A stretch of 64,000 bases of DNA from a candidate division WOR-3 bacterium (GCA_027026255.1 JALVOT010000004.1:39061-103060), one strand, 5' to 3'; counted from the first letter of the stretch, positions 5,850 through 63,364 are shown. Notes: a model not told the origin generated them from the letters alone. A program made the numbers and translations.

Positions 5850-8228
5850 ATGAAAAAAGGATTAATACAAGTATGGCTCCTGGGGTTTATATTAACAGGG
5901 TGTCTATATGGGGCTATTAACACCGGACCCTACCTGACTCCAGGGGATAATCCCAAGACCTCTGTCTGGGTTAACTGGAATACCACCAACGCAGCCCAGA
6001 GCAGAGTTGCTTATGGAACCAGTTCTTCTGCACTAAACGACACTGCAAGCAGTTCAGGAACAACTGAATTCCATCATGTATTACTGGATAATCTCAATCC
6101 AGGAACAGTATACTACTACAAAGTTCTCCCCAGTGGCGATGTCAAACATTTCCGAACTTTTCCCAATAGTGCTGACAGCTTCAACTTCATTGCTTTTGGC
6201 GATACCCGTGATGGTGATAATCCCCACCAGCAGATAATGAATCGAATGTGGGATTATGATTTTGTGCTTGTTACCCATTCTGGAGATTTAGTAGGTAGGG
6301 GCAATAGGTGGTCGGATTGGACCACATTCTTTGATATCGAAGATACTGTAATCAGCTATAAGCAGTTTTTACCAGCGGTGGGTAATCATGAATACCCCTA
6401 CACACAATTTGACAGTCTTTTCAAACTCCCTGAGGGAAATAATAACAACTACTATTCATTAGATTATGGAAACGCCCATTTTGTAGTCCTTAATACTCAG
6501 AGCGATATCTCGGCTGAGAGTACCTGGCTTGTAAACGACCTTCAGGCAGCAAATAACAATCCGAATATTGTCTGGAAATTTGCAAATTTTCACCGTCCAC
6601 CTTATTCGTCAGGTCCACACGGAAGTGCTTCGGATATAAGAGCAAAATGGTGTCCGGTATTAGAAGAATATGGAGTGGATATTGTTTTTAATGGTCATGA
6701 CCACGACTATGAGCGAAGTATTGATATCAATGGAACAGTCTATATTGTAACCGGTGGTGGTGGTGCACCCCTTTATAATCCGGACTCAAACTGGTGGACA
6801 GCACATGTAGAAGGCACTTATCATTTTTGTTTGATTGAAATAAGAGACGATGATCTGCTTTTGAAAGCAATCAAACGGGACGGCACTGTATTCGACACTC
6901 TGAGATTGCATAAAGCGGCACATGAACCCTGGATTACAATCACCAATACTGATATTAATGATCCATCTCCTGGTGGAAATGGCAATAACCAATTAGAACC
7001 AGGGGAAACAGCCAACCTTCTAATAACCCTGAAAAACCAGGGTGGTGTCCAAGCAACAAATACTAATGGGCTATTACGCACCAGTGATCCTTATATCACA
7101 ATAAATGATTCAACTACAACGTTCGGTAATATAGCACCTGATTCCCAGAAAACAAATAACGCGGATCCATTTAACATTACAGCATCAGATTCAACCCCAA
7201 CGGGTCATACAGTTCAATTTGAACTTATTGTTACTGCTAATGATTATAATGATACCCTTAACTTTGATATTATGGTCGGCACCAAAGATTATTATGTCTG
7301 GAACCCTGACCCTACTCCATCACCAGGACAGCAAATTGATTCAATCCTGACTGCCCTGGGATATTCTGGTGATTACGGCACATCTCTGGCATCAGATTTA
7401 ACCAAATACAAATCTGTCTTTGTATGCGTTGGAGTATACAGCAACAGTTACATGATAAGAGAGAACAGTCCTGAAGCATCAGCCCTTGCAGATTATCTCC
7501 AGAATCAGCACGGCAGGATGTATTTAGAGGGTGCTGATGTCTGGTACTGGGACCCAAACCATGGTGGTTATAATTTTAATCCGTTATTTGCCATTAATCC
7601 GACTGACGAAGGTACTAACGATATGGGTCCGGTGGTTGGCCAGTCTGGGAGATTTACTGCGGGAATGAACTTCAACTATAATGGTGAGAATAATTATATG
7701 GATCATATCTCACCTACGGGTAATGGATTTTTAATCTTTGTTGACGGTGATAATAATTATGATTGTGGTGTTGCGCATGATGCAGGGGATTATAGGACGG
7801 TTGGGACTTCATTTGAGTTAGGTGGTCTGGTGGATGGGTCTCCACCTTCAACCCGTGCTGCGCTGTTGGATTCGATAATGCATTTCTTTGGAATCTCTAT
7901 CAATCCAGGGGTTAAAGAGCAAAAAGACCTTTCAATGAAACCAGCAAAAACCCAGCTGACCCAACTCTATCCCAACCCGACAAACAGCAAAACTACGATT
8001 AAATTCCAGATTAACCATAATACTCCATTATCATTAAAAATCTATGATGCCATGGGTCGTCTGGTGCGAACGATAATAGACTCTCCCGACTGTAAACCAG
8101 GTTACTACACAGTCAAATGGGAAGGCAATGATAATAGAGGTAGAAAGGTATCAAACGGTATCTACTTCTTATCTTTCCAGACTGATACTCACAAAACACT
8201 ACGTAAGGTAATAGTCATAAAAAGGTAA
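5850..8228 (+). CDS. Secreted calcineurin-like metallophosphatase (purple acid phosphatase family) with a T9SS C-terminal sorting domain
   Basis: 792 aa. Signal peptide MKKGLIQVWLLGFILTGC. PAP N-terminal FN3-like domain (VAYGTSSSAL...GTVYYYKV). Metallophosphatase motifs GDTRDGDN, GNHE, GHDHDYER. The C-terminal roughly 80 aa (LYPNPTNSKTTIKF...NGIYFLSF...KVIVIKR) match the Por/T9SS C-terminal-domain pattern. Confidence 0.8.
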   Translation: MKKGLIQVWLLGFILTGCLYGAINTGPYLTPGDNPKTSVWVNWNTTNAAQSRVAYGTSSSALNDTASSSGTTEFHHVLLDNLNPGTVYYYKVLPSGDVKHFRTFPNSADSFNFIAFGDTRDGDNPHQQIMNRMWDYDFVLVTHSGDLVGRGNRWSDWTTFFDIEDTVISYKQFLPAVGNHEYPYTQFDSLFKLPEGNNNNYYSLDYGNAHFVVLNTQSDISAESTWLVNDLQAANNNPNIVWKFANFHRPPYSSGPHGSASDIRAKWCPVLEEYGVDIVFNGHDHDYERSIDINGTVYIVTGGGGAPLYNPDSNWWTAHVEGTYHFCLIEIRDDDLLLKAIKRDGTVFDTLRLHKAAHEPWITITNTDINDPSPGGNGNNQLEPGETANLLITLKNQGGVQATNTNGLLRTSDPYITINDSTTTFGNIAPDSQKTNNADPFNITASDSTPTGHTVQFELIVTANDYNDTLNFDIMVGTKDYYVWNPDPTPSPGQQIDSILTALGYSGDYGTSLASDLTKYKSVFVCVGVYSNSYMIRENSPEASALADYLQNQHGRMYLEGADVWYWDPNHGGYNFNPLFAINPTDEGTNDMGPVVGQSGRFTAGMNFNYNGENNYMDHISPTGNGFLIFVDGDNNYDCGVAHDAGDYRTVGTSFELGGLVDGSPPSTRAALLDSIMHFFGISINPGVKEQKDLSMKPAKTQLTQLYPNPTNSKTTIKFQINHNTPLSLKIYDAMGRLVRTIIDSPDCKPGYYTVKWEGNDNRGRKVSNGIYFLSFQTDTHKTLRKVIVIKR

Positions 8229-8925: not shown

Positions 8926-11502
8926 ATGAAAAAAGGATTAATACAAGTATGGCTCCTGGGGTTTATATTAACAGGGTATCTATATGGAGGTATTAACACC
9001 GGACCCTACCTGACTCCAGGAAGTAATCCCAGGACCTCTGTCTGGGTTAACTGGAATACCAATAACGCAGCCCAGAGCAGAGTCGCTTATGGAACCAGTT
9101 CTTCTGCACTAAACGACACTGCAAGCAGTTCAGGAACAACTGAATTTCATCATGTATTACTGGATAATCTCAATCCAGGAACAGTATACTACTACAAAGT
9201 TCTCCCCAGCGGCAATGTCAAATATTTCCGAACTTTTCCCAATAGTGCTGACAGCTTCAACTTCATTGCTTTTGGCGATACCCGTGATGGTGATAATCCC
9301 CACGAGCAGATAATGAATCGAATGTGGAGTTATGATTTTGTGCTTGTTACCCATTCTGGAGATTTGGTAGGTAGTGGCAGCAGCTGGTCAGATTGGACCA
9401 CATTCTTTAATATCGAAGATACTGTAATCAGCTATAAGCAGTTTTTACCAGCGGTGGGTAATCATGAATCCCCCTTTACACAATTTGACAGTCTTTTCAA
9501 ACTCCCTGAGGGGAGTAATAACAACTACTATTCATTAGATTATGGAAACGCCCATTTTGTAGTCCTCAATACTGAGATGAATTCGAGCGGTATCTCGGCT
9601 GAGAGTACCTGGCTTGTAAACGACCTTCAGGCAGCAAATAACAATTCGAATATTGTCTGGAAATTTGCAAATTTTCACCGTCCACCTTATTCATCAGGTC
9701 CACACGGAAGTGCTTCGGATATAAGAGCAAAATGGTGTCCGGTATTAGAAGAATATGGAGTGGATATTGTTTTTAATGGTCATGACCACCTCTATGAGCG
9801 AAGTATTGATATCAATGGAACAGTCTATATTGTAACCGGTGGTGGTGGTGCACCCCTTTATAATGGAGACTCAAGCTGGTGGACAGCATATTCAGAAGGC
9901 ACTTATCATTTTTGTTTGATTGAAATAAGAGATGATGATCTGCTTTTGAAAGCAATCAAACGGGACGGCACTGTATTTGACACCCTGAGATTGCATAAAC
10001 CAATACATGAACCCTGGATAAAGGCACTCAGCTATAATATTACTGATCCTCCACAAGGTGGAAATGGTAATGGTATATTAGAACCTGGTGAGACCGGGAA
10101 AATGGTGGTAAACATAAAAAATATTGGTGGTGCAGGTGCCTATAATACAACCGGGACCTTGGTATCCTATGATAACTATGTTACAGTGCAGAATACAACC
10201 TATAACTTTGGTGACCTGGCTCCGGGTGATACCACATCGAATTCAGGCAGTCCGTTTTCACTCGTGGTTCACGATTTAACCCCTCAGGGACATGGTGCAA
10301 AGATTGGGTTAGTGCTCCATGCGGATGGTAAAAATGATACCGTAGACTTTGATGATACACTATACTATACAATTACAATCGGCACTCCCCCAGACCCCAC
10401 AATCATCTTTGGAGACGACTTTGAATACAGTGGTGGAGTTGATAGTTTTCCACATTACTGGAATGCAACTGGAAACTGGGCGCGCTCAACCCAGAATTCC
10501 CATTCTTCAAGCCATTCTGCATATAGTGGTGCACCTCTTGATAATGCAACAACCTTAACCATGAAAAATGGAGTTGACCTGACCCCATTCAGTGACCCCC
10601 GACTCAGTTTCTGGCACCGTTATGATTTTGCTTCAGCAATGTTTATGGATGGCTGTGCAGTTCAGATCTCTACTAACGGCGGTTCTTCCTGGGGAGACCT
10701 CTGGACCTTTAACTGGAATAACGGTGAAACCATTCCCTGGACTGAATTTGCCCTGCCTCTTTCTTCCTATATCAGCAACAATGTCAAGGTTAGATTTATG
10801 ATTGACGCCAATACAATGTTCCAGGACCGTACTGATTGGTTCATCGATGATTTTATGTTATTTACTCCAACCGACAATGAGCCGCCTTATTTTACAAATA
10901 CTACGGTCTGGCCGGATACTAATTATACTGGCCCATTTCCTGTGCAGTCAAAGATTACCGATAAAAGTGGTGTCGACCAGGCAAAACTCTATTATCGGGT
11001 TAATTCAGGTTCCTGGCAGGAACTGACAATGTCAGCGGGGAGCAATAATATCTATTCAGCAAGCATTCCTGCCCAGTCCTCGGGTGATAAGATTGACTAT
11101 TATTTATGGGCCCGGGATAAGTGGCTTACTCCGAATGCGGGATGTGACCCGATTGGTGCACCGGATCGTGGATATTACTCATTCAATCTGAAGATCGGAA
11201 TCAATGAAGGTCAGGCGGGCAGAATTCAGTTTATGCCGATAATCACCAATCCTACGCGGGGTCCGGTAAAGATCAGATTCAGCATTCCGGAGAAGAATAA
11301 GGTCAATCTGGCAGTCTATGATGTAACCGGCAGAAAGGTGAAAACAATATTCAATAAAAAAATAGCCCCTGGTGAATATCAGATAACCTGGAATCGTCTT
11401 GATGAAAAACATAGGCAGATTTCTACAGGCATCTACTTCTTGAAGTTTTCTGTTCCCGATGCAAAGTATGAAAAGATAGAGAAGGTTGTTCTTTTGAAAT
11501 AG
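8926..11502 (+). CDS. Secreted calcineurin-like metallophosphatase paralog with a divergent MAM/galactose-binding-like middle region and a T9SS C-terminal sorting domain
   Basis: 858 aa. The first about 345 aa are near-identical to the 5850..8228 product and carry the same metallophosphatase motifs. It then diverges (..CAVQISTNGGSSWGDLW..). The C-terminus GPVKIRFSIPEKNKVNLAVYDVTGRKV...GIYFLKFS...KVVLLK is T9SS C-terminal-domain-like. Confidence 0.8.
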   Translation: MKKGLIQVWLLGFILTGYLYGGINTGPYLTPGSNPRTSVWVNWNTNNAAQSRVAYGTSSSALNDTASSSGTTEFHHVLLDNLNPGTVYYYKVLPSGNVKYFRTFPNSADSFNFIAFGDTRDGDNPHEQIMNRMWSYDFVLVTHSGDLVGSGSSWSDWTTFFNIEDTVISYKQFLPAVGNHESPFTQFDSLFKLPEGSNNNYYSLDYGNAHFVVLNTEMNSSGISAESTWLVNDLQAANNNSNIVWKFANFHRPPYSSGPHGSASDIRAKWCPVLEEYGVDIVFNGHDHLYERSIDINGTVYIVTGGGGAPLYNGDSSWWTAYSEGTYHFCLIEIRDDDLLLKAIKRDGTVFDTLRLHKPIHEPWIKALSYNITDPPQGGNGNGILEPGETGKMVVNIKNIGGAGAYNTTGTLVSYDNYVTVQNTTYNFGDLAPGDTTSNSGSPFSLVVHDLTPQGHGAKIGLVLHADGKNDTVDFDDTLYYTITIGTPPDPTIIFGDDFEYSGGVDSFPHYWNATGNWARSTQNSHSSSHSAYSGAPLDNATTLTMKNGVDLTPFSDPRLSFWHRYDFASAMFMDGCAVQISTNGGSSWGDLWTFNWNNGETIPWTEFALPLSSYISNNVKVRFMIDANTMFQDRTDWFIDDFMLFTPTDNEPPYFTNTTVWPDTNYTGPFPVQSKITDKSGVDQAKLYYRVNSGSWQELTMSAGSNNIYSASIPAQSSGDKIDYYLWARDKWLTPNAGCDPIGAPDRGYYSFNLKIGINEGQAGRIQFMPIITNPTRGPVKIRFSIPEKNKVNLAVYDVTGRKVKTIFNKKIAPGEYQITWNRLDEKHRQISTGIYFLKFSVPDAKYEKIEKVVLLK

Positions 11503-26831: not shown

Positions 26832-26843
26832 TTATCTACTCAG

Positions 26844-26917
26844 GGTGAGTGAGGGGACTTGAACCCCCAACCATTGGAGCCACAGTCCAATGCTCTGCCA
26901 GTTGAGCTACACTCACC
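26844..26917 (-). tRNA. tRNA-His (anticodon GTG)
   Basis: Reverse complement reads GGTGAGTGTAGCTCAACTGGCAGAGC...anticodon loop CTGTGGC...GGGGGTTCAAGTCCCC. G-1 is encoded. Confidence 0.8.
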
Positions 26918-26922
26918 ATAAA

Positions 26923-26994
26923 TACCCCGCACAGGACTTGAACCTGCAACCCACGGATTAAGAATCCGTTGCTCTACCATTGAGCTAGCGGGGC
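26923..26994 (-). tRNA. tRNA-Lys (anticodon CTT)
   Basis: Reverse complement reads GCCCCGCTAGCTCAATGGTAGAGC AACGGA-TTCTTAA-TCCGT ...GGTTCAAGTCC. Confidence 0.8.
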
Positions 26995-27007
26995 AATTTT
27001 ATTAGTC

Positions 27008-27081
27008 CGCGCCTGGAGGGAATCGAACCCCCAACCTACGGATTAGAAATCCGTTGCTCTATCCTGTTGAGCTACAGGCGC
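27008..27081 (-). tRNA. tRNA-Arg (anticodon TCT)
   Basis: Reverse complement reads GCGCCTGTAGCTCAACAGGATAGAGC AACGGA-TTTCTAA-TCCGT ...GGTTCGATTCC. Confidence 0.8.
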
Positions 27082-27171
27082 CCGCATCCGATAAAAATGG
27101 TTTATTCAGAACCAGATGATTATACCCGGTTAATTTCAATTGTCAATTAGAAATTAAATACAAATTAAAAT

Positions 27172-27696
27172 TTAATCGGCAGTGATTTTTATCGCCGACT
27201 TGTATCCATCGACATTCACATAAAATATTTCAACCTTTGCGACGCGATTGTGCATCCATACAATAACCGAACCTTCCAGTCGTTTTCGCGTAAATCGGGG
27301 TCTGATACGTTCATAGGAAAATCGTCGGCGAGGCGTAATAAAAATTGCTGGTCGGCGTAATCTCCGGGGAATCCTTCGCCAGTTTAAAACTGCCTTACTG
27401 CGCGAAAGGGGATTTTTATGGCCGAAAACATTATCGTACCTCCCTTTCTCCCAGATTTTTTCCAGTTGATGATTAAGATATTTTGGGTTGTATCTCCGTT
27501 TCCATCTATGTTTAACATCAAAATTGGGCAGGTAATAAAAAAGGTCGGTCGAGAGATTATGCACCATCGCTTTTAGACTTGCTTCATCAGCCCTTTTTTT
27601 TGCACTTACAAGATTAACTGTTGCGATTGAACTTAATATTGATATTATTACAAGCACTACCAGCATTTCAACCATTGAAAATCCTTCAGTCTTCAT
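27172..27696 (-). CDS. Prepilin-type (type IV pilin/pseudopilin) protein with N-terminal cleavage/methylation motif
   Basis: 174 aa. KTEGFSMVEMLVVLVIISIL is the class III signal G|FS(M)xE followed by a hydrophobic helix. The C-terminal half is unusually Arg/Lys-rich. Its start overlaps the upstream gene by 4 nt. Confidence 0.65.
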   Translation of the reverse strand: MKTEGFSMVEMLVVLVIISILSSIATVNLVSAKKRADEASLKAMVHNLSTDLFYYLPNFDVKHRWKRRYNPKYLNHQLEKIWEKGRYDNVFGHKNPLSRSKAVLNWRRIPRRLRRPAIFITPRRRFSYERIRPRFTRKRLEGSVIVWMHNRVAKVEIFYVNVDGYKSAIKITAD

Positions 27697-28199
27697 TTTA
27701 TCACCTCCGCCAGGGAATCTTTTAACGATATTTTTAATTGTTTAAAACCATGTTTTTCAGGATTCGGACAGAAAATAATCGTATCATTACCACTAATTTC
27801 GATTTTATATGCCAATCCACTAACCGGACAAACAAATGTATCACCGGGTGATTCACCTTTTTTTAACAATTCTTTAATTTCCTCGAGATTCGCCATACAA
27901 AGCACCGCATCTTTATCCACAGTCGGTTCCTTAAATGTCTCTTCTTTAAAAATAAATAATCTTGAAAGAATAAATAAATTGTATGCAATAATACCAATAC
28001 ATACAGCAAGTATTAACCATTTAAAGATTGAAGGAAAACGGTGCTTCCTGGATTTTGCCGGGGTGACAGTGGCATCAGGCGCTTTTTCCATTTTTTCTTC
28101 TGCCATTTCTATCTGACACCTGGAACAGTAATCTCCGGAATGTTCTTCGTCAAATAACTGGCCACATCTGAGACATCTTTTTTTTGTATTTTCACTCAT
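27693..28199 (-). CDS. Zinc-ribbon single-pass membrane protein (hypothetical, operon partner of the ATPase)
   Basis: 168 aa. N-terminal CLRCG...CSRCQ zinc ribbon, one TM helix (FKWLILAVCIGIIAYNLFIL), and an extracytoplasmic domain with CPVSG...FCPNPEKHG. It overlaps the ATPase gene by 8 nt. Confidence 0.45.
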   Translation of the reverse strand: MSENTKKRCLRCGQLFDEEHSGDYCSRCQIEMAEEKMEKAPDATVTPAKSRKHRFPSIFKWLILAVCIGIIAYNLFILSRLFIFKEETFKEPTVDKDAVLCMANLEEIKELLKKGESPGDTFVCPVSGLAYKIEISGNDTIIFCPNPEKHGFKQLKISLKDSLAEVIK

Positions 28200-30759
28200 T
28201 ATTACCTCCCTTCCCGAGTAATCTGGATATCTTTAAAAGTAGTAATTGCTTTTTTATCGGCTTTTTGATATAGTCTACAGCGCCAAGTTCTAATCCCTTA
28301 ATCTCATCTTCTGCCTCGGTTCTTGCCGTTAAAAATACAACCGGAACATCTATACCTTTTTGCTTAATAATCTCTAAGAGTTTAAACCCATCAAGATTCG
28401 GCATATTGACATCCGATATAACCAGGTCGAATTTTTTACTGCCAATTTGCATAAGGGCATCAACTCCATCCTCAACATAGGTGATATCATAGTTATTCTT
28501 CTTTAATATCTGCTTCAACAATAGTCCAATCTCCGGGTCATCATCAACGATAAGGATTGAGGGAGCCGTTGTTTTTTCTTCTTTTGCAGCCTTTTTTGAT
28601 TCTTCTTTTTTTAATGAAACAGACTTCATATCTTCAGCCAGAACAGCCTTGTAAACATCTTCCGGACTGAATATCAGGTTTTGCACCTTCTCAACCGCAT
28701 GATTACTGATTAAATAGTGTCCTTTTTTTCGAATTAATTCTCTTATTTCCGCAATGGGTGTGCCCTGTCGAACCATTTCGGTAATTTCGTAGTCGAATTT
28801 CAAGATTTCATAAATTCCTTCACGTCCTTTATAACCGCTATTATTACAGCGTGGACAACCCACGGGTTTTGCAACCTTTGTAATTTCTTTATCAACAAAT
28901 GGCCGCAGTATCTTCAAATCATAGTCCGAAGGTTCGGTTATCTTTTTGCAGAAGGGACAGAGTTTTTTTACCAGACGTTGGGCGATGATACAAATAAGTG
29001 CTTCCGCCATTACCTCCCGCGTAATACCGAGTCTTTCAAGACGGAATATTGCGGTCGTTGTATTTGAAGTATGGAGAGTAGAAATTGTTAGGTGACCGGT
29101 GCTTGAAAAATTCATAGCCATTTTTGCCGAATATTGGTCCCTGATTTCACCGAGGAAAATTATATCCGGGTCCTGACGCACAACAGATTTTAACAACGCC
29201 TCAAATGTTACTCCCGCCTTTTCATTTACCTGTTGTTGATTGGCAAACGGGATGCGGTATTCTACAGGGTCTTCAATTGAAACAAGACTGCGTGATCTGC
29301 AATCAACCTGGGAAAGAAGACTGTAAATCGTAGTAGTTTTACCGGAACCGGTTGGTCCGACGATAAGAATTAAGCCATGGCTGCGGTTAATAATATCAAG
29401 TAAGATTTCCACCTGTTCGGATGTCATCCCGAGTTCTCCAAGAGATTTTGGCTTTGCATGGGGTTCCAACAATCTGATAATAAGACTCTCCCCTTCCGGA
29501 GTGGATGTCGTCGCAAGTCGCAGTTTGAATATCCTTTTGTTAATAACCGCCTCCAATGTGCCGTCTTGAGGTCGTCTCTTTTCTGTAATATCCATATCGG
29601 CTAAAACCTTTAATCTATTTATCAACATCAAACCTGTTCTCTTTTTTAAAGTAAACATTTCGTGCATATCACCATCGACACGGAATCGCACAACCGTTTC
29701 ATTTTTTTTGGGCTCGATGTGAATATCACTTGCCCTTTCGGAAACAGCGGTAATCAAAATATTATTGGCGATATGCATTACTGGATATTTCGTGATGTCA
29801 GCCGTACTTAAGTCAGTTTTAATTGTTTTTGTCGCTTCAATACCGCTTGTTTTATCCGGGTCGCTACGGACGGCCACTTCTGCAATCTCCTCCGCGGTTT
29901 CATCAGACATACCTGACCTGAGAAAAGCATCAATAACCTCAGGACTTGTGATTTTTAAACAGGGTCTGTTTTCAGCACTGCTCCCTAATCTGGTTAAAAG
30001 ATCCACCAATTCAACATCGAAAGGATTACAAATAATATAACAGATTTTGTCTTTCTCATCTATCACCGGAAGAACATAATTCGCCCGGCAGAAGGCAGGA
30101 GGCAAAACATCCAATTCTATTAAATTATGGTCTATATAACTTATAAAGGGAAGATGCGTGAAATCAGCAAGATATTGAGCTAATTGTTTAGTCGTAATAT
30201 CAATTTTCTTACAGATGGAATAAATATTATGGATTGAAGCCTTTCCCACCAGATACTGCTGATTATCATCAAGCTTCAACTGATTAATAAGAAATTTCTT
30301 AAATTTAACAAAATCCGGAATTTCTGATTTAATCTCCCTGCTCGGCTTGCGCTCTTCTATTTTCTGCCACCGGCTTTTTGTTTTTATATAGGAATCAATT
30401 TTTTTAATCAGCTCTTCCCGATTTATTGGTTTAATCAGATAATCGACACCCCCGGAAGAAAAAATCCTTTCCCTGTTCTGTTCCTGGTCAAATGCCGTTA
30501 TAAAAATTACCGGGATGTAAGCGAAATGCTGGTCTGCCTGTAATTTTCTACATACCTCATAACCATTCATACCGGGCATTGATACATCGAGGAGTATTAA
30601 ATCCGGTTTACTGTTTTTTAGAATTGTGAATGTTTCCAGACCATCTGCAGCAGAAATTACATCATAACCATTTTTCCTTAAAATATGTTCAATTAAATTT
30701 CGCGTATCCGGGTCATCATCAACAACCATTATTAGAGGCGGTGAATTATTCATATACAA
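28192..30759 (-). CDS. GspE/PilB-family type II secretion / type IV pilus ATPase flanked by N-terminal and C-terminal response-regulator receiver domains (REC-GspE_N-ATPase-REC)
   Basis: 855 aa. N-terminal REC is VVDDDPD...LILLDVSMPGMNG...VIFITA...YLIKP, with all conserved Asp/Thr/Lys positions present. The middle has a GSPII_E N-terminal-like domain and the ATPase core: Walker A GPTGSGKTTT, Asp/His boxes, and the tetracysteine CPFCK...CPRC. C-terminal REC is ILIVDDDPE...DLVISDVNMPNLDG...VVFLTA...YIKKP. Confidence 0.8.
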   Translation of the reverse strand: MYMNNSPPLIMVVDDDPDTRNLIEHILRKNGYDVISAADGLETFTILKNSKPDLILLDVSMPGMNGYEVCRKLQADQHFAYIPVIFITAFDQEQNRERIFSSGGVDYLIKPINREELIKKIDSYIKTKSRWQKIEERKPSREIKSEIPDFVKFKKFLINQLKLDDNQQYLVGKASIHNIYSICKKIDITTKQLAQYLADFTHLPFISYIDHNLIELDVLPPAFCRANYVLPVIDEKDKICYIICNPFDVELVDLLTRLGSSAENRPCLKITSPEVIDAFLRSGMSDETAEEIAEVAVRSDPDKTSGIEATKTIKTDLSTADITKYPVMHIANNILITAVSERASDIHIEPKKNETVVRFRVDGDMHEMFTLKKRTGLMLINRLKVLADMDITEKRRPQDGTLEAVINKRIFKLRLATTSTPEGESLIIRLLEPHAKPKSLGELGMTSEQVEILLDIINRSHGLILIVGPTGSGKTTTIYSLLSQVDCRSRSLVSIEDPVEYRIPFANQQQVNEKAGVTFEALLKSVVRQDPDIIFLGEIRDQYSAKMAMNFSSTGHLTISTLHTSNTTTAIFRLERLGITREVMAEALICIIAQRLVKKLCPFCKKITEPSDYDLKILRPFVDKEITKVAKPVGCPRCNNSGYKGREGIYEILKFDYEITEMVRQGTPIAEIRELIRKKGHYLISNHAVEKVQNLIFSPEDVYKAVLAEDMKSVSLKKEESKKAAKEEKTTAPSILIVDDDPEIGLLLKQILKKNNYDITYVEDGVDALMQIGSKKFDLVISDVNMPNLDGFKLLEIIKQKGIDVPVVFLTARTEAEDEIKGLELGAVDYIKKPIKKQLLLLKISRLLGKGGNNE

Positions 30760-31063
30760 TCTGCAGCCTATCCAAATAATTTTTCAGTTCTTCAAGCATA
30801 CTTATAATCTGCTCAGCATTTCTATCTTTGGCAGCAAGTTCAATGGTTTTTCCTATTTCAGTGATTTTTTCAAATCCGTATCCCCCTCCAGAACCTTTCA
30901 TACCATGTCCGAGTCGTTCAATTATAACATATTCACCATTTTGAAGCGCCGAACGTATAGTCTCTATATCTGTATATCTCTTTTCAATATAACCAGGAAT
31001 TAATTCTTTCAGGTCGGCATCGATGTGAACAACAATTTTTTCTTCATCTGCCATTCTTATCAC
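30746..31063 (-). CDS. Stand-alone histidine phosphotransfer (Hpt) domain protein
   Basis: 105 aa. LGHGMKGSGGGYGF matches the HxxKG...G phosphohistidine helix signature of Hpt domains. It overlaps the kinase gene upstream by 20 nt and the ATPase gene downstream by 14 nt. Confidence 0.7.
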   Translation of the reverse strand: MIRMADEEKIVVHIDADLKELIPGYIEKRYTDIETIRSALQNGEYVIIERLGHGMKGSGGGYGFEKITEIGKTIELAAKDRNAEQIISMLEELKNYLDRLQIVYE

Positions 31064-33536
31064 CTCCTATAAATTTTGCTATCTCATTCAATAAAACTTT
31101 TTTCTTGATTGGCTTGGTAAGATGGGCGTCACATCCTGCTTTAATGCTTTTTTCCATCTCTTCTTTCAATGCATAGGCAGAAAGGGCAATAATCGGTGTA
31201 TGCCCTGTTCCATTCTCTTTTTCAAATTTACGTATTTCTTTTGTTGCAGTATATCCATCCATTACCGGCATCTGCACATCCATAAGCACCAAATCGTATG
31301 ATTTCTGCTTAAACTTTTCTACTGCTATAGCACCGTTTTCTGCAAAATCAAGATTAATAGGCATTCCTTTCAGGTATGCCTTAATCAAAAAACGATTGTC
31401 TTCAGTATCTTCAACCACAAGTAAATTTGATGATTTTTTAATCCGGGGAGCGGAAGCAGATGTCGACGGCTGCATTGTTTTAAATACCACAACCTTACCC
31501 AGGGCAAGTTCAATTGCTCTTTTTAAATCGTTCTTTTTAATAGGTTTAACTAAATAACTCGCAATATTCATTTCCTGACAGCGCTGAATATCACCCTTTC
31601 TCCGATCTGAAGTGAGCATCATTATCGTCGTAGTCTTTAACTCAGGATATTTTTTTATTTCACGCGCAACATCAAATCCACCCATTCCAGGCATCCGGCA
31701 ATCAAGAATAACAAAATCATAATTCTCCGATTTTTTACTGGCACGCAATAAAGAGGCAATCGCCTTTTCACCACTTTCAGCTTCACTTACAGAGACGCCC
31801 CAATTCGATAAAATATCTTTCAGTATAAGTCGATTTGTTGCATTATCATCAACCACCAGAGCCTTCATACCTTTAAGATTAACCTCTGACAGCACCTCAG
31901 GCTCTTTTACCTTCGGCGCAATCTGAAATTGAGCCGTGAAATAGAATGTACTCCCTTTGTTCACCTCACTTTCAACCCAGATTCTGCCTTCCATTAATTC
32001 AACAAGTTGCTTTGAGATTGCCAGGCCGAGTCCGGTGCCGCCATATTTTCTTGTGTGAGAAGAATCTGCCTGGGTAAAACTTTCAAATATCTTATCCTTT
32101 GTATCGTTGGGAATACCAATTCCGGTATCTCTGACGGCAAACTTAATAATTACAGTATTCCCCTCTGTCATCTCTTTTTTTACCTCTACAACAACCTCTC
32201 CCTGTTCGGTAAATTTAATTGCGTTTCCCACTAAATTTACCAGAATCTGTCGGAGTCTAACCGGGTCTCCAATTAAATGTGTCGGGACATCCGGGGTGAT
32301 ATGGCATGCCAGCTCCAGATTTTTCTTATGGGCGCGTATCGCCATTATCTCACAGGTGCGGTCCAGAAGGTCATTCAAATCAAATTCAATCTTTTCGAGT
32401 TCTATCTGTCCGGCTTCAATCTTCGATATATCAAGAATGTCGTTAATAATATTCAAAAGATTTTCGCCGGCATTCTTAAATATCTGCACATAGTATCGCT
32501 GTTCATCATTGAGTGGAGTCTCGGCGAGCAATTCAGCCATACCAACAATTGCATTCATCGGTGTTCTTATTTCATGACTCATACTGGCAAGAAATTCTGA
32601 TTTTGATTTTGAAGCAAGAAGGGCTTGTTGACGCGCCTTTATCAACTCATCTTCCATCTTTTTTCTTTCCGTAATATCGTGGAATATCGCCCGGGTAGTA
32701 TAAAATTTGCCGTCTTTGAATCGTGCATTTACATTCCCCTCCACAAAAATCTGCTTGCCATTCTTGCTTACAAATATAGTTTCCACATTGTCCATTCTTT
32801 CTCCCTGCAAAACGCGCTGGAAGACCTGTCGACAATGTTTACGATGTTTAGGATGTATAATATCAAAGATACATATTTCTTTAGCCTCTTCCCTTGTATA
32901 TCCCAGCACTTCTGACCATCTTTTGTTCACATAAATAAACTTACCCTCGGCATCAACTATCTGTATTAAATCGGTCGCATTTTCGAATAAATCGCGATAC
33001 CTTTCTTCACTTTCAACGAGTGATTCTTGAATCTCTTTTCTCCGGGAAATTTCCTGCTCAAGTTCTTTCCTGGTCAATTGCAATTCTTGATTTCTCTTTT
33101 TAAAGATTTCCGTAATGCGGGCCGCATCCTGAAGTGAAATTTTTGCCTCTTCCTCAGACATCAAAAAATCAGCCAGTTTATCAGTCATCGTCACCTCGGG
33201 GAATGCCAGTAACAGAAATCCCGATTCTATTTTCAGCCATCGGCCGCGCAAAAGAATTTTTTTATCATTGACCTTAAAGACTACATTACAGGTAGTATTG
33301 ATTAACTCCGGCAATTTGTGAAAAGGCAGTTCCTTTTTCTCGATATATATTTTGAGAACTTCCTTAATATTTTTTCCGGGGATATACTTATGGTATCTGA
33401 GAAAAGAGTTGCTTGCCCACACCACAGAAAATTGTCGGTCAACCTCCAGGATAAAAGGGACAAGAAAAGAAAGCGATGAAAGTTCGATTTCAACTTTTCT
33501 GTCTTGCTTCATAAAAATTTTCCCTCCATTATGCAA
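31044..33536 (-). CDS. Soluble hybrid sensor histidine kinase (N-terminal domain of unknown function, coiled coil, PAS, HisKA, HATPase_c, REC, REC)
   Basis: 830 aa. PAS ([30 protein letters not shown]), H-box [11 protein letters not shown], and G-boxes DTGIGIP / [11 protein letters not shown]. Two receivers follow: [11 protein letters not shown]...[11 protein letters not shown]...LTS...YLVKP and [11 protein letters not shown]...[11 protein letters not shown]...LSA...HLTKP. No TM segment is evident. Confidence 0.85.
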
Positions 33537-33832
33537 TCCGGGTCATTTTTACTTATAGCGGTTTTTCCGACCGATTCAAAATGTGTCCTGTAATATTTCC
33601 TTAAAGTGTTGTAGTTCATAAACTTACCATATTTAATCATTACTCTGTCTATCGGTTTTTTTGTCACCTTGACGACGGCATTAATTAAATCTACCCCTAT
33701 CTTATCCGAACAATCAAGGCCTCTTGCAAAGAAACCTTCTTTGCAACCACCCGGTTCACAAATCGCTTCACCAGATTCTATCTTTATCATCTCTTCAATA
33801 CCCTCATCAATGTTCCCTTTCATAATATTCAC
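33509..33832 (-). CDS. Hypothetical small Cys-containing protein, first gene of the phosphorelay operon
   Basis: 107 aa. Contains CEPGGCKEGFFARGLDCSDK. Its 3' end overlaps the kinase start by 28 nt. No recognisable motif. Confidence 0.35.
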   Translation of the reverse strand: MNIMKGNIDEGIEEMIKIESGEAICEPGGCKEGFFARGLDCSDKIGVDLINAVVKVTKKPIDRVMIKYGKFMNYNTLRKYYRTHFESVGKTAISKNDPDCIMEGKFL

Positions 33833-33938
33833 CTTCTTTTTTCAACTATTTTTATTCCCTGGTTCAATTAAATAACATTTTTTAAAATATTATAGCAAAT
33901 TATAATAAAAATTTTGCTTTTGTCAAGGTAAGTCTTTC

Positions 33939-60882: not shown

Positions 60883-62199
60883 TCACTTTATATCATATTC
60901 TTTTATCTTCGCCCTGAGGGTGTTGCGGTGGATGCCAAGAATCTTTGCTGCCTCGGATAGATTCCACCCGGTCTTTTCTAAAATCTTTTTAATATGGACC
61001 TTCTCCATCTCAGCAAGTGAACCGGATTCTTCTTCAGTATGCCATTCAAGGGGAATCTCTTTTATTGTAATATAGTCTCCCGGGCAGAGGACAACCGCAC
61101 GCTCTATTACATTCTCCAGCTCTCTGATATTCCCGGGCCAATCATAACGAACCAGTCTCTTAAGGGCGTCAGGGGTGATACCCTTAATCTCTTTATGACT
61201 GCGCTGAGAGAATTTTTTTAAGAAGTATTCAGCAAGGACTGGAATATCCTCACGCCTCTGGCGCAGCGGTGGAATATTGATATTGATTACATTGAGACGA
61301 TAATAAAGGTCTTCACGAAACTTTCCCCGGGCAATCTTCTTTTTTAAATCCTGATTCGTTGCACTGATAAGCCGAACATTTACCTTTATGGGGGTATTGG
61401 AACCGAGCCTTTCAAATGTGAATTCCTGTAATACCCTTAACAACTTCACCTGGGTGCTCAGGGGCAGGTCGCCAATCTCATCAAGAAACAGGGTGCCCTG
61501 ATGGGCGAGTTCAAATTTGCCGTAGCGCCTTTTTTCCGCTCCGGTAAAGGCACCCTTCTCATAACCAAAGAGTTCACTCTCAAGCAGGGTCTCGGGCAGT
61601 GCGGCACAGGAGATAGGAACAAATTGACGGTCCTTTCTTGGACTCATTTGATGAATTAATCTTGCAATCATCTCCTTACCGGTTCCTGATTCACCAAGGA
61701 TTAAAACCGCAGCATCAGATTTTGCAACACGATTTACAATCTTGAGTATCTCTTTCATCTTTTTACTCTGAGCAATAAATGAATCAGTCGGAAAGATTTC
61801 TTTTATTTCATCCCTTAAAAGATTTAATTCCTGATGAAGCCCCTTCTCTTCATTGATACGGGCAATAATAATTTCCAATTCATCAAGATTGATCGGTTTA
61901 TTAAGATAATCATAAGCACCGATTTTCATCGCCTGAACCGCTGATTCGACGGTTCCGTAACCGGTCAGGATTATAAAATATGTCATTGGGTCAATCTTTT
62001 TCATTTGTGCCATTGTTTCCACACCATCAAGTTCGGGCATCTTCAGGTCGAGTATCACCAGGTCAAATGTGTTATGTTTGTTTAACTCAATCGCATCCCT
62101 GCCTGACCCTGCGGTCTTTACACTATGCCCCTGTTTTTGTAAAAATCCTGCTAAGAGATTGCGCTGGGCTGGTTCGTCATCGACAACCAGGATGTTCAT
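60883..62199 (-). CDS. Sigma-54-dependent response regulator (NtrC family: REC, AAA+, HTH)
   Basis: 438 aa. REC ILVVDDEP...LVILDLKMPELDG. AAA+ GESGTGKE with the GAFTGA sigma-54 contact motif. C-terminal Fis-type HTH. Confidence 0.85.
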   Translation of the reverse strand: MNILVVDDEPAQRNLLAGFLQKQGHSVKTAGSGRDAIELNKHNTFDLVILDLKMPELDGVETMAQMKKIDPMTYFIILTGYGTVESAVQAMKIGAYDYLNKPINLDELEIIIARINEEKGLHQELNLLRDEIKEIFPTDSFIAQSKKMKEILKIVNRVAKSDAAVLILGESGTGKEMIARLIHQMSPRKDRQFVPISCAALPETLLESELFGYEKGAFTGAEKRRYGKFELAHQGTLFLDEIGDLPLSTQVKLLRVLQEFTFERLGSNTPIKVNVRLISATNQDLKKKIARGKFREDLYYRLNVININIPPLRQRREDIPVLAEYFLKKFSQRSHKEIKGITPDALKRLVRYDWPGNIRELENVIERAVVLCPGDYITIKEIPLEWHTEEESGSLAEMEKVHIKKILEKTGWNLSEAAKILGIHRNTLRAKIKEYDIK

Positions 62200-62203
62200 A
62201 GAA

Positions 62204-63364
62204 TCAAATCAATTCTTTACTGCGCATATCTTTGCATAAACTGTAGCCACCAAGGAGTAATACTCCGCTGCCCAGAATAGTTACAATAATTTTGATGATA
62301 AATCCCAATACCGGAATGAGGTATAAAAGGGTAAGAACTATGACCCCGACGATGAATGAAAGATACAGGGAGATATCACCTTCCTTTTTAAAAAGTTGAA
62401 TAATTTTCTCACCCAGCACAAGGGCGACAAAGATTGAGGCAAGATAGAGGAGCACGGTATAGAAATATATTCCGAATAGGGCGAATGGATAGCCGATTAA
62501 AGTAACAAGAAGAATGATTATTACTACCGGGATGACAATAATACCGAGAAATCCCCAGCCCAATGATACCCAGGGTCTGGAAATGCATATATCCATAATG
62601 CGTCGGGGGAATCTTTTGGAAAACGTAATGAGCACAATCCCGACAATAATCATAGCGATGAAGGTAATTGTCTTAAACAGGGAAATAAAAAAACCTAAGG
62701 CCGGCGCCAATTTCTTTAAGAATTCACCCTTTGTCTTTTTTGTCTCTTTTATAACTTTCTGTTGACCGCTAACCGCTGCCCCGGATTCAATTACTGGTCT
62801 TTTATCACCCCGCACAATAAGGTCGCCGTTAACCCGGGCATCTTTTTCAATCTTAACCTCATCCGATTTGATATTTATGGTTCCACTCCTGCCGGACATA
62901 AGAAACCTTCCGCTACTCCCTTTTATGGTTCCGGTGATCTCGCCCAGAATATTCACCTCGCCGCCGTAGCAGCGAAGGTCCTTCTTTATCCAGGCATCCC
63001 TGGTAATCAGAAGGTTTCCCCCAAAGAGCATAACATTCTTTTCGGCGGTTGCGGATATTGTGATATCACCGGCTCCTGCCCAGACTGAATTTACCATAGG
63101 CGATGATATTTTTACCTGAGATGCACCACAGAATATGGTTCCTTTAACATCACCACTCACTTCAATCTTCTGGGCAAAGGCATAAAGGTCTCCATTGACC
63201 TTACCGTGAATAATGACGGTTCTGCCCAGGGCAATAAGGTCATCATCAATCACCTGTTCTCTGGTTAATTCTATGGTATTTCCCTTTTTAACGACGATTC
63301 CATAAGCCGGTGCAACAATCGAGAACAATATAATAATGCTCAAAAGCAGTTTAAAGTATTTCAT
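62204..63364 (-). CDS. Hypothetical membrane-anchored protein with bactofilin-like (polymer-forming, beta-helical) repeats
   Basis: 386 aa. N-terminal signal/TM. A repetitive G-x-V/I-x-G hydrophobic ladder (GDVKGTIFCGASQVKISS...GEVNILGEITGTIKG...) resembles a bactofilin/DUF583 beta-helix. C-terminal multi-TM region. Confidence 0.4.
   Translation of the reverse strand: MKYFKLLLSIIILFSIVAPAYGIVVKKGNTIELTREQVIDDDLIALGRTVIIHGKVNGDLYAFAQKIEVSGDVKGTIFCGASQVKISSPMVNSVWAGAGDITISATAEKNVMLFGGNLLITRDAWIKKDLRCYGGEVNILGEITGTIKGSSGRFLMSGRSGTINIKSDEVKIEKDARVNGDLIVRGDKRPVIESGAAVSGQQKVIKETKKTKGEFLKKLAPALGFFISLFKTITFIAMIIVGIVLITFSKRFPRRIMDICISRPWVSLGWGFLGIIVIPVVIIILLVTLIGYPFALFGIYFYTVLLYLASIFVALVLGEKIIQLFKKEGDISLYLSFIVGVIVLTLLYLIPVLGFIIKIIVTILGSGVLLLGGYSLCKDMRSKELI

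Follow-up and report, generated by a model that had tools for sequence, protein, structure and literature searches.

We analyzed an operon on a 64,000-nucleotide stretch of DNA from a candidate division WOR-3 bacterium (GCA_027026255.1, JALVOT010000004.1:39061-103060; hereafter the window), in which phosphorelay genes are combined with the gene of a GspE/PilB-type ATPase that carries a receiver domain (REC) at each end. Six co-oriented open reading frames (ORFs) occupy the minus strand from 33832 to 27172 in the ORF listing, and the overlapping genes themselves run from 33823 to 27172. They encode, in this order, a remnant of an H-NOX protein, a soluble hybrid histidine kinase, a stand-alone histidine phosphotransfer (Hpt) protein, the receiver-flanked ATPase, a zinc-ribbon protein with a single transmembrane (TM) helix, named here ZnTM, and a prepilin. 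An earlier reading of this DNA (the original prediction) had described five co-oriented genes overlapping by 4-28 nt; the orientation and the overlaps stand, while the products that it lists number six and the overlaps span 4-14 nt after the gene starts were revised. The revision relied on an alignment with the orthologues of locus L001, from the WOR-3 metagenome-assembled genome (MAG) GCA_011052815.1, and on independent public gene calls for the same contig (L005). The H-NOX remnant starts at ATG 33823 (104 aa), the kinase at ATG 33512 (822 aa; an ATGA overlap with the stop of the upstream remnant), the Hpt protein at ATG 31054 (102 aa), and the ATPase at TTG 30759 or ATG 30753. With these starts, the five junctions overlap by 4, 11, 8-14, 8, and 4 nt, respectively. 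A GGAGG-type Shine-Dalgarno sequence lies within the upstream gene at four of the five junctions, and none was evident at the Hpt/ATPase junction.

The boundaries of the operon could also be placed. A promoter-like site, TTGACA-16-TATAAT, which matches the sigma-70 consensus at 12 of 12 positions, is located at 33899..33926 on the minus strand, ~75 nt 5' of the first gene. It sits just downstream of the strong terminator (a 12-bp hairpin, 34438-34412) in which the preceding gene ends. Directly after the pilin gene, a second 12/12 promoter of the same form (27146-27119) drives a tRNA cluster, so that positions 26843-27146 of the minus strand hold this promoter followed by tightly spaced genes for tRNA-Arg(tct), tRNA-Lys(ctt), and tRNA-His(gtg). 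The operon is thus well delimited by promoter, terminator, and tRNA promoter, and the simplest reading is a single translationally coupled transcript, which is predicted to cover all six genes. The six-gene arrangement is not a matter of chance, because the identical order recurs in the L001 WOR-3 MAG, where the proteins are 45-58% identical to those of the window and the H-NOX gene is intact.

Profile searches agreed with the domain content given in the original prediction. PAS, HisKA, HATPase_c, Response_reg, Hpt, T2SSE, and N_methyl were all confirmed with Pfam, the N-domain of the ATPase being of the MshEN type. The soluble PAS-containing hybrid kinase with two receivers, the stand-alone Hpt protein, the ATPase with a receiver at each end, the zinc-ribbon single-pass membrane protein, and the prepilin-type protein were all recovered as described, with an apparently pilin-like periplasmic domain to be added for the membrane protein.

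The ATPase (855 aa; 28192..30759, minus strand, as are all operon positions below) is organized as REC-MshEN-T2SSE-REC, with Pfam values of 1.9e-110 for T2SSE, 4.1e-62 for the two Response_reg domains, and 2.4e-7 for MshEN. Receiver 1 (aa 10-121; 30397..30732) has the residues D14/D15, D58, T88, and K110, and it is followed by the MshEN/GSPII domain at residues 209-281. The ATPase core (aa 325-695; 28675..29787) contains a Walker A motif (GPTGSGKTT), an Asp box (EDPVE), a Walker B motif (DPDIIFLGEIRD), and a His box (TGHLTIS), as well as the CPFC...CPRC tetracysteine zinc site that is typical of GspE/PilB. Receiver 2 (aa 734-848; 28216..28560), with DDD at 739-741, D783, T811, and K833, is joined via a variable low-complexity linker of 20-70 residues across the relatives. 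The canonical acidic pair, Asp, Thr, and Lys of both receivers are kept in the window protein and in 20 of 21 aligned relatives, the exception being a Planctomycete (L026) with a degenerate REC1 and an intact REC2; a general loss of this geometry, which would have spoken against the receivers, was not seen. REC2 is better conserved than REC1 among the aligned relatives (mean identity of 51% vs 41%). Among PDB structures, GspE, PilB, and PilF matched the ATPase at ~1e-80 and PilT at ~1e-25; since the former far outrank the latter, the protein is an extension/secretion-type enzyme. Its scores fell under the NCBIfam equivalog cut-offs for both GspE (TIGR02533, 408 vs 630 bits) and PilB (TIGR02538, 378.5 vs 675.65 bits), and it therefore belongs to a subfamily of its own within the GspE/PilB clade.

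Control of the ATPase by c-di-GMP via the MshEN domain was considered and rejected. The 24-residue binding motif, RLGxx(L/V/I)(L/V/I)xxG(L/V/I)(L/V/I)xxxxLxxxLxxQ, had neither a strict nor a relaxed match in the window ATPase and 21 relatives. Regulation appears to have been handed over to phosphorylation.

The Hpt protein (30746..31054) matches Pfam Hpt at 3.6e-7 and has H53 in the motif HGMKG (HxxKG). To place it in context, a neighbor census was made using phmmer with the six window proteins, covering 22 loci from about ten phylum-level groups. The core formed by hybrid kinase, Hpt, and REC-ATPase-REC was found adjacent in ~20 loci labeled as Desulfobacterota/Syntrophia, Omnitrophota, Nitrospirota, Chloroflexota, Fermentibacterota, Elusimicrobiota, Planctomycetota, Gemmatimonadota, and WOR-3. 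The Hpt gene lies immediately upstream of the ATPase gene in nearly every locus of the census, ~20 in all, usually preceded by a large hybrid kinase gene, and in the Fermentibacterota loci the Hpt domain forms the C-terminus of the kinase. From this conserved adjacency we infer that the Hpt protein would pass its phosphoryl group to the ATPase receivers. The sensor domains of the kinases vary among loci and include H-NOX, PAS/GAF, CHASE, and solute-binding domains.

The architecture is also widespread beyond the census. At least 120 of the best-matching database clusters combine T2SSE with Response_reg, at ~830-890 aa and 96-100% query coverage; the window's own protein apart, these best 120 clusters are 49-58% identical to the window ATPase. 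They are named "response regulator", "TadA", or "PilB" in the database, and nearly all of those with a stated organism derive from MAGs. A scan of species-representative genomes added full-length homologues in MAGs labeled as Syntrophorhabdaceae, Syntrophus, Thermodesulfobacteriota, Chloroflexota/Dehalococcoidia, Omnitrophota, Nitrospirales, Gemmatimonadetes, Fermentibacteraceae/Sabulitectum, Elusimicrobia, and Planctomycetia.

At the head of the relay stands the soluble hybrid histidine kinase (822 aa; 31044..33512), with Pfam matches to PAS, HisKA, HATPase_c, and two Response_reg domains. An N-terminal HNOBA-like region is followed by a coiled coil, the PAS domain, HisKA (H-box SHEIRTP), HATPase_c, and the two receivers, and no TM segment was predicted. 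Over its first ~130 residues the protein is homologous to the L001 kinase, in which this region matches Pfam HNOBA at 2.5e-5; in the window protein the HNOBA match is below significance. The gene upstream, described in the original prediction as encoding a small Cys-containing protein, is a true ORF whose identity can now be extended, from its Pfam match and its alignment with L001, to an internally deleted H-NOX (104 aa; 33509..33823; Pfam HNOB 1.3e-6, covering only profile positions 9-92 of 163). It aligns to the first ~93 (~90) and the last ~13 residues of the 180-aa L001 orthologue, and the ~72 internal residues are gone in frame, together with the proximal heme His and the YxSxR motif. 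The L001 protein (L001:6984-7526) is a full H-NOX (Pfam 3.5e-45; Nostoc H-NOX structures 3.6e-27) that has a His aligned with the proximal heme ligand as well as YHSKR, so both marks of a heme sensor are present there and missing from the window copy. Despite the deletion of ~72 codons, the window gene is still an open frame with a ribosome-binding site, and it remains coupled to the kinase gene through ATGA. At 822 aa, the kinase of the window exceeds its L001 counterpart (720 aa) by ~100 residues, and its sole PAS match spans residues 178-290; no PAS was reported for the L001 kinase. Our reading is that the gas-sensor input probably decayed and a PAS domain was added in the window lineage; a sensor swap could be in progress.

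The same deletion could be taken as the mark of a relic, that is, of an operon that is decaying and no longer functional in this genome. The in-frame loss of ~72 residues removed the heme-ligating His and YxSxR, and the kinase N-terminus no longer matches Pfam HNOBA. Against this, the remaining five ORFs are undamaged and have lost none of their catalytic residues, start/stop overlaps persist at every junction with Shine-Dalgarno sequences at four of five, the remnant ORF itself is in frame and ATGA-coupled to the kinase gene, and the extra PAS domain of the kinase can supply sensing. We therefore find a relic highly improbable.

Downstream of the ATPase gene lies the gene for ZnTM (168 aa; 27693..28199), a protein with a cytoplasmic CxxC...CxxC zinc ribbon of four Cys, one TM helix at residues ~54-85, and a periplasmic alpha+beta domain of ~85 residues. 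No significant Pfam or NCBIfam family match was obtained, and ZnTM founds an unannotated protein family. A word-indexed homology search with the ZnTM alignment yielded only 7 proteins, and an exhaustive hidden Markov model (HMM) search was used instead, which gave 236 clusters at 50% identity among 1.84 billion representatives. The near-invariant positions are the four ribbon Cys, C101, C124-P125, Y131, P145, P147, and H150. An AlphaFold2 model based on a 76-sequence alignment (pLDDT 89) has the zinc ribbon and a long TM helix, and another helix packs against a sheet of four strands; an earlier model from a 3-sequence alignment (pLDDT 60) was discarded. Comparison by hhalign with the lectin-type pilins of Desulfobacterota-type loci, described below, gave a weak match (probability 15%, P = 0.0017) in which the TM helix and the C...CPxxGxxY...C motifs align in register. 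No similarity to the WOR-3-type basic pilins was detected by hhalign, and a Foldseek search of the whole model against the PDB returned nothing significant, which counts against a pilin fold. ZnTM has no class III signal peptide: GFxxxE is missing before the TM helix, and a cytoplasmic zinc-ribbon extension of ~55 residues is found in its place. Judging from the model and the motif register, ZnTM is probably a pilin-fold protein with a cytoplasmic zinc ribbon instead of a cleavable leader. A reading of ZnTM as a zinc-binding anti-sigma (ZAS) factor was rejected, as the operon encodes no sigma factor and ZnTM is conserved together with the pilin, the ATPase, and Hpt.

The last gene encodes a prepilin (174 aa; 27172..27696) with the class III signal MKTEG|FSMVE and matches to Pfam N_methyl (3.1e-6) and TIGR02532 (8.5e-7). 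Its head is Cys-free and very basic (pI 10.8), with 32 K+R vs 12 D+E in 139 residues. Among 15 homologues of the pilin family, E10 (E+5) is invariant and G5 (G-1) nearly so; this conservation indicates processing by a prepilin peptidase encoded outside the operon. Two kinds of partner pilin were distinguished. The first, with a basic, Cys-free head, belongs to WOR-3-like lineages (~15 clusters). The second, found in Desulfobacterota-type loci, has a C...CPxGGxY...CSxHY module that is usually followed by a 3-keto-disaccharide-hydrolase/DUF1080 jelly-roll domain, a layout that resembles modular adhesin pilins. Only the N-terminal 62 residues are common to the two kinds. The DUF1080 jelly-roll is grafted on the pilins of L006, L013, L024, L025, and L011, and in a Chloroflexota locus (L008:13454-14266) it is grafted on the ZnTM protein itself. 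The grafted domain suggests a glycan-binding head.

Gene fusions and gene neighborhoods connect ZnTM to the other products. Hpt-ZnTM fusions with an N-terminal Hpt were found in 5 clusters (P0151, P0152, P0173, P0178, and P0184) and in L006 (L006:1017-1823); such a fusion would tether the phosphotransfer step at the membrane beside the pilin-like domain. In protein P0158, a T2SSE domain reduced to its last ~60 residues is joined to a zinc ribbon, a receiver, and ZnTM. It was rejected as a full ATPase-ZnTM fusion, since only a T2SSE remnant is present and there is no ATPase upstream at the locus, and it is therefore best seen as a decayed fusion and as weak evidence. Two distant ZnTM homologues adjoin a prepilin gene, one of them, at a contig edge, with no ATPase gene directly upstream. 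Taken with the fusions, this adjacency indicates that ZnTM is tied most tightly to the prepilin, and then to Hpt and the ATPase. ZnTM and pilin genes both accompany the ATPase in the window, in L001 and L089-L091 (WOR-3-like), in L006, L007, L011, L013, and L019 (Desulfobacterota/Syntrophia), and in L024 and L025. In L008, the gene after that of the ATPase encodes the ZnTM-DUF1080 fusion, and a prepilin of its own was not identified at this locus.

Some of these loci have peculiarities of their own. In L089 (L089:6887-9480), the REC-N-domain, the T2SSE core, and the C-terminal REC of the ATPase were called as three ORFs, with ZnTM and a paralogous pair of basic pilins after them; this split may be genuine or an artifact of assembly frameshifts. 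Directly downstream of the module, two WOR-3-like loci (L090:10603-12744 and L091:6508-8649) encode a C25 (gingipain-like) peptidase with a Por_Secre_tail, and the same arrangement is present in a Fermentibacteraceae MAG (L016:13591-15855); in L017, L018, and L023 the downstream ORF is of similar size (~740-750 aa). These peptidase neighbors may be fortuitous, type IX secretion cargo being abundant in such genomes, or they may reflect a functional link. Outside the operon, the 64 kb of the window hold housekeeping genes and, on the plus strand at 5850-8228 and 8926-11502, two paralogous purple-acid-phosphatase-like metallophosphoesterases with type IX secretion C-terminal sorting domains (Por_Secre_tail). 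These sorting domains point to an organism of the FCB-group type, in agreement with the WOR-3 labels of the closest relatives. In addition, an NtrC-type sigma-54 activator (REC-Sigma54_activat-HTH_8; 60883-62199, minus strand) adjoins a DUF8173 protein with a faint bactofilin match (62204-63364, minus strand), a pair that appears unrelated to the operon.

Regulatory variants of the module were also found. At L088:5316-10558, genes for a REC-SpoIIE(PP2C) protein, an RsbW-like kinase (HATPase_c_2), and a STAS protein lie directly upstream of an effector trio that consists of a receiver-less MshEN-T2SSE ATPase, a ZnTM-like TM protein, and a basic pilin. The ZnTM-like protein has the same periplasmic domain and a different cytoplasmic domain of ~115 aa. 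Partner switching appears to replace the fused receivers at this locus. At L092, the ATPase likewise has no receivers of its own and lies between a single-domain receiver and a soluble protein with a double zinc ribbon. Both variants imply that the signaling domains vary around an ATPase/pilin effector, the input always being post-translational in kind.

With moderate confidence, we interpret the operon as a signal-gated post-translational switch for a specialized type IV filament, whose peptidase and probably whose platform come from elsewhere. A His-Asp-His-Asp phosphorelay would here end on a GspE/PilB-type assembly ATPase and not on a transcription factor, and this interpretation, already put forward in the original prediction, is supported at the sequence level. 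The soluble hybrid kinase would sense a cytoplasmic cue, the ancestral sensor presumably being H-NOX/heme gas sensing through the HNOBA domain. The kinase would autophosphorylate and pass the phosphoryl group to its own receiver, then to the stand-alone Hpt protein, and from there to one or both receivers of the ATPase. Phosphorylation of REC2 and/or REC1 would turn the hexameric motor on or off, either by controlling ring assembly or by relieving autoinhibition, by analogy with NtrC-type REC-AAA+ proteins. At the membrane, the motor would act on two co-encoded clients, the basic-headed prepilin and ZnTM, an uncleaved and apparently pilin-fold protein whose zinc ribbon is a likely docking site for the ATPase or Hpt. 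The product would be a specialized type IV filament in the form of a dedicated pilus or a short pseudopilus, with other parts of the genome supplying the prepilin peptidase and, most likely, the PilC/GspF platform as well.

What the sequence shows is the gene order, the domains, the catalytic and phospho-acceptor residues, the conserved synteny, and the gene fusions; the direction of phosphotransfer, its effect on ATPase activity, the contact of ZnTM with the ATPase, and the formation of a filament are inferred from them. Several observations weigh against such a switch. The H-NOX at the input end of the relay is degenerate in the window. The L088 ATPase is no closer to the window ATPase than is E. 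coli HofB (243 vs 252 bits). Neither a pilin nor ZnTM is encoded nearby (within 3.5 kb downstream for the pilin) in about half of the REC-ATPase loci, and the ATPase may therefore have a role that is independent of them. Finally, as the original prediction had stated, the 64 kb window contains no gene for a platform protein (T2SSF), an A24 prepilin peptidase, a secretin, or PilMNO. The 22 census loci and seven Pfam-annotated neighborhoods likewise have no PilC/GspF platform gene at a distance of up to 10 kb from the ATPase, a Peptidase_A24 gene was absent from the window and the annotated neighborhoods, and in none of the related loci did a peptidase, secretin, or alignment gene lie in the 10 kb around the ATPase. 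In canonical systems, pilB-pilC or gspE-gspF adjacency is the rule. A phmmer scan of the related loci with E. coli HofC, which had no positive control, did not find a platform either. The multi-TM ORFs near the related ATPases were examined as hidden PilC candidates and ruled out, being transporters, an acyltransferase, NfeD, and a PilS-like kinase. Of the components that mark a type IV filament system, the locus thus provides the ATPase and the prepilin, and lacks the platform and the peptidase.

Taken at face value, this absence would fit a self-contained filament machine that works without a platform. In it, ZnTM would replace PilC/GspF as the force transmitter and would seed or push a short single-pilin pseudopilus, with the ATPase hexamer coupled directly to ZnTM via the zinc ribbon and only the prepilin peptidase borrowed. 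The lack of any T2SSF gene within 10 kb in the census loci and the annotated neighborhoods agrees with such a machine, as do the tight linkage of ZnTM to the prepilin and to the ATPase/Hpt (gene fusions included) and the apparently pilin-like structure predicted for ZnTM, with its cytoplasmic extension instead of a leader peptide. However, no characterized type IV filament system is known to do without a polytopic platform protein, there is just one TM helix in ZnTM, both ZnTM and a pilin are missing from many REC-ATPase loci, and the absence of the platform covers the loci only, the HofC scan having had no positive control. We consider this machine unlikely, and we hold it quite unlikely that the module is a platform-independent minimal filament machine gated by the phosphorelay or, in some lineages, by partner switching, with ZnTM as its piston or anchor. 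For the switch that borrows its missing parts, it is relevant that the conserved signal of the pilin implies a peptidase encoded elsewhere, which makes it likely that a platform is available elsewhere too.

The loci without a pilin raise another alternative, in which the receiver-flanked ATPase would be a signaling or remodeling motor that does not primarily assemble filaments, the pilin and ZnTM being lineage-specific add-ons. Its task might be, for instance, to move proteins into or out of the membrane or to control a different machine of the envelope. Signaling genes (kinase, Hpt, and extra receivers) are indeed the only universally conserved neighbors of the ATPase, a pilin is lacking from the 3.5 kb downstream in about half of the loci, and C25 peptidases with a type IX sorting tail are found immediately downstream in two lineages. 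On the other hand, the core is a typical GspE/PilB extension-type enzyme with an MshEN/GSPII N-domain and the tetracysteine site, the members linked to ZnTM and pilin are spread over the family tree and do not form one tip clade, and the trio of ATPase, ZnTM-like protein, and pilin persists where the regulatory input has been swapped. A role of this kind is very unlikely in our view, and a gated filament motor remains our preferred interpretation.

A full-text literature search, with subscription journals mostly outside its coverage, returned no description of a receiver-fused GspE/PilB ATPase, of the ZnTM family, or of this gene order; mention of a REC-PulE architecture in a domain catalog is possible. 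The original prediction had not recognized the combination as a described system, and indeed no published characterization was found; yet the architecture is common in metagenomes and cannot be called rare. New are the two-ended receiver fusion with its dedicated Hpt protein, the zinc-ribbon pilin-like family with its various fusions, the fact that a platform gene is consistently absent, and the interchangeable post-translational inputs. Control of type IV pilus (T4P) and type II secretion motors is known to occur via second messengers and separate receiver proteins, and how a receiver acts on such a motor is poorly understood. The REC-ATPase-REC fusion and its dedicated Hpt protein offer a compact in vitro system for the gating of a secretion-type hexameric ATPase by phosphorylation, and the systematic absence of a platform gene, together with the ZnTM partner, makes one ask whether PilC/GspF might be dispensable for a type IV filament motor. 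Many lineages of uncultured anaerobes (Desulfobacterota, Omnitrophota, WOR-3, Fermentibacterota, and others) have the module, with very different sensors, and it is therefore probably a general switch of a surface structure, possibly one for adhesion, that acts faster than transcription.

Several known systems share parts of this logic. Stand-alone receiver proteins modulate PilB/PilT activity in trans (PMC13507683; see also PMC11181946, PMC10519157, and 10.1101/2021.06.11.447907). In PilG/PilH of Pseudomonas, the PATAN-REC proteins PixG/PixH of Synechocystis, and DrdR of Xanthomonas, a phosphorylatable receiver modulates a PilB/PilT-type ATPase post-translationally, as is proposed here. In the window, however, the receivers are fused in cis at both ends of the ATPase, the relay consists of a dedicated Hpt protein and a hybrid kinase instead of a CheA-type kinase, and the operon brings its own pilin and membrane partner. 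The c-di-GMP-gated MshE/PilB enzymes also have an N-terminal regulatory module on a GspE/PilB-type ATPase and gate pilus extension post-translationally, whereas the 24-residue motif is absent from the 22 members of the present family that were checked and phosphorylation is the apparent signal. On the input side, the HnoX-HnoK, HahK, and HqsK-LuxU systems of Shewanella, Vibrio, and Pseudoalteromonas similarly have H-NOX directly upstream of a hybrid kinase and an Hpt step. Their outputs are c-di-GMP enzymes or LuxO-type regulators, in contrast to the secretion/pilus ATPase found here, and the H-NOX of the window has no heme core. With NtrC1 and DctD, of the NtrC family of REC-AAA+ proteins, only the general logic is shared, namely that a receiver controls the assembly or activity of a hexameric ATPase ring; the window ATPase is of the secretion-type RecA-like superfamily, has no DNA-binding output, and carries two receivers. 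The L088 variant, which lies outside the window, resembles HptB-HsbR-HsbA-type cascades in its REC-PP2C protein, RsbW-like kinase, and STAS protein, here directly upstream of the ATPase, ZnTM-like, and pilin genes, and its presumed target is a pilus ATPase module and not an anti-sigma factor or a diguanylate cyclase. Lastly, the effector part of the operon has the same cast as GspE-GspL-GspG of the type II secretion system, in that the gene of an ATPase is found together with those of a (pseudo)pilin and of a bitopic membrane protein that has a domain in the cytoplasm.

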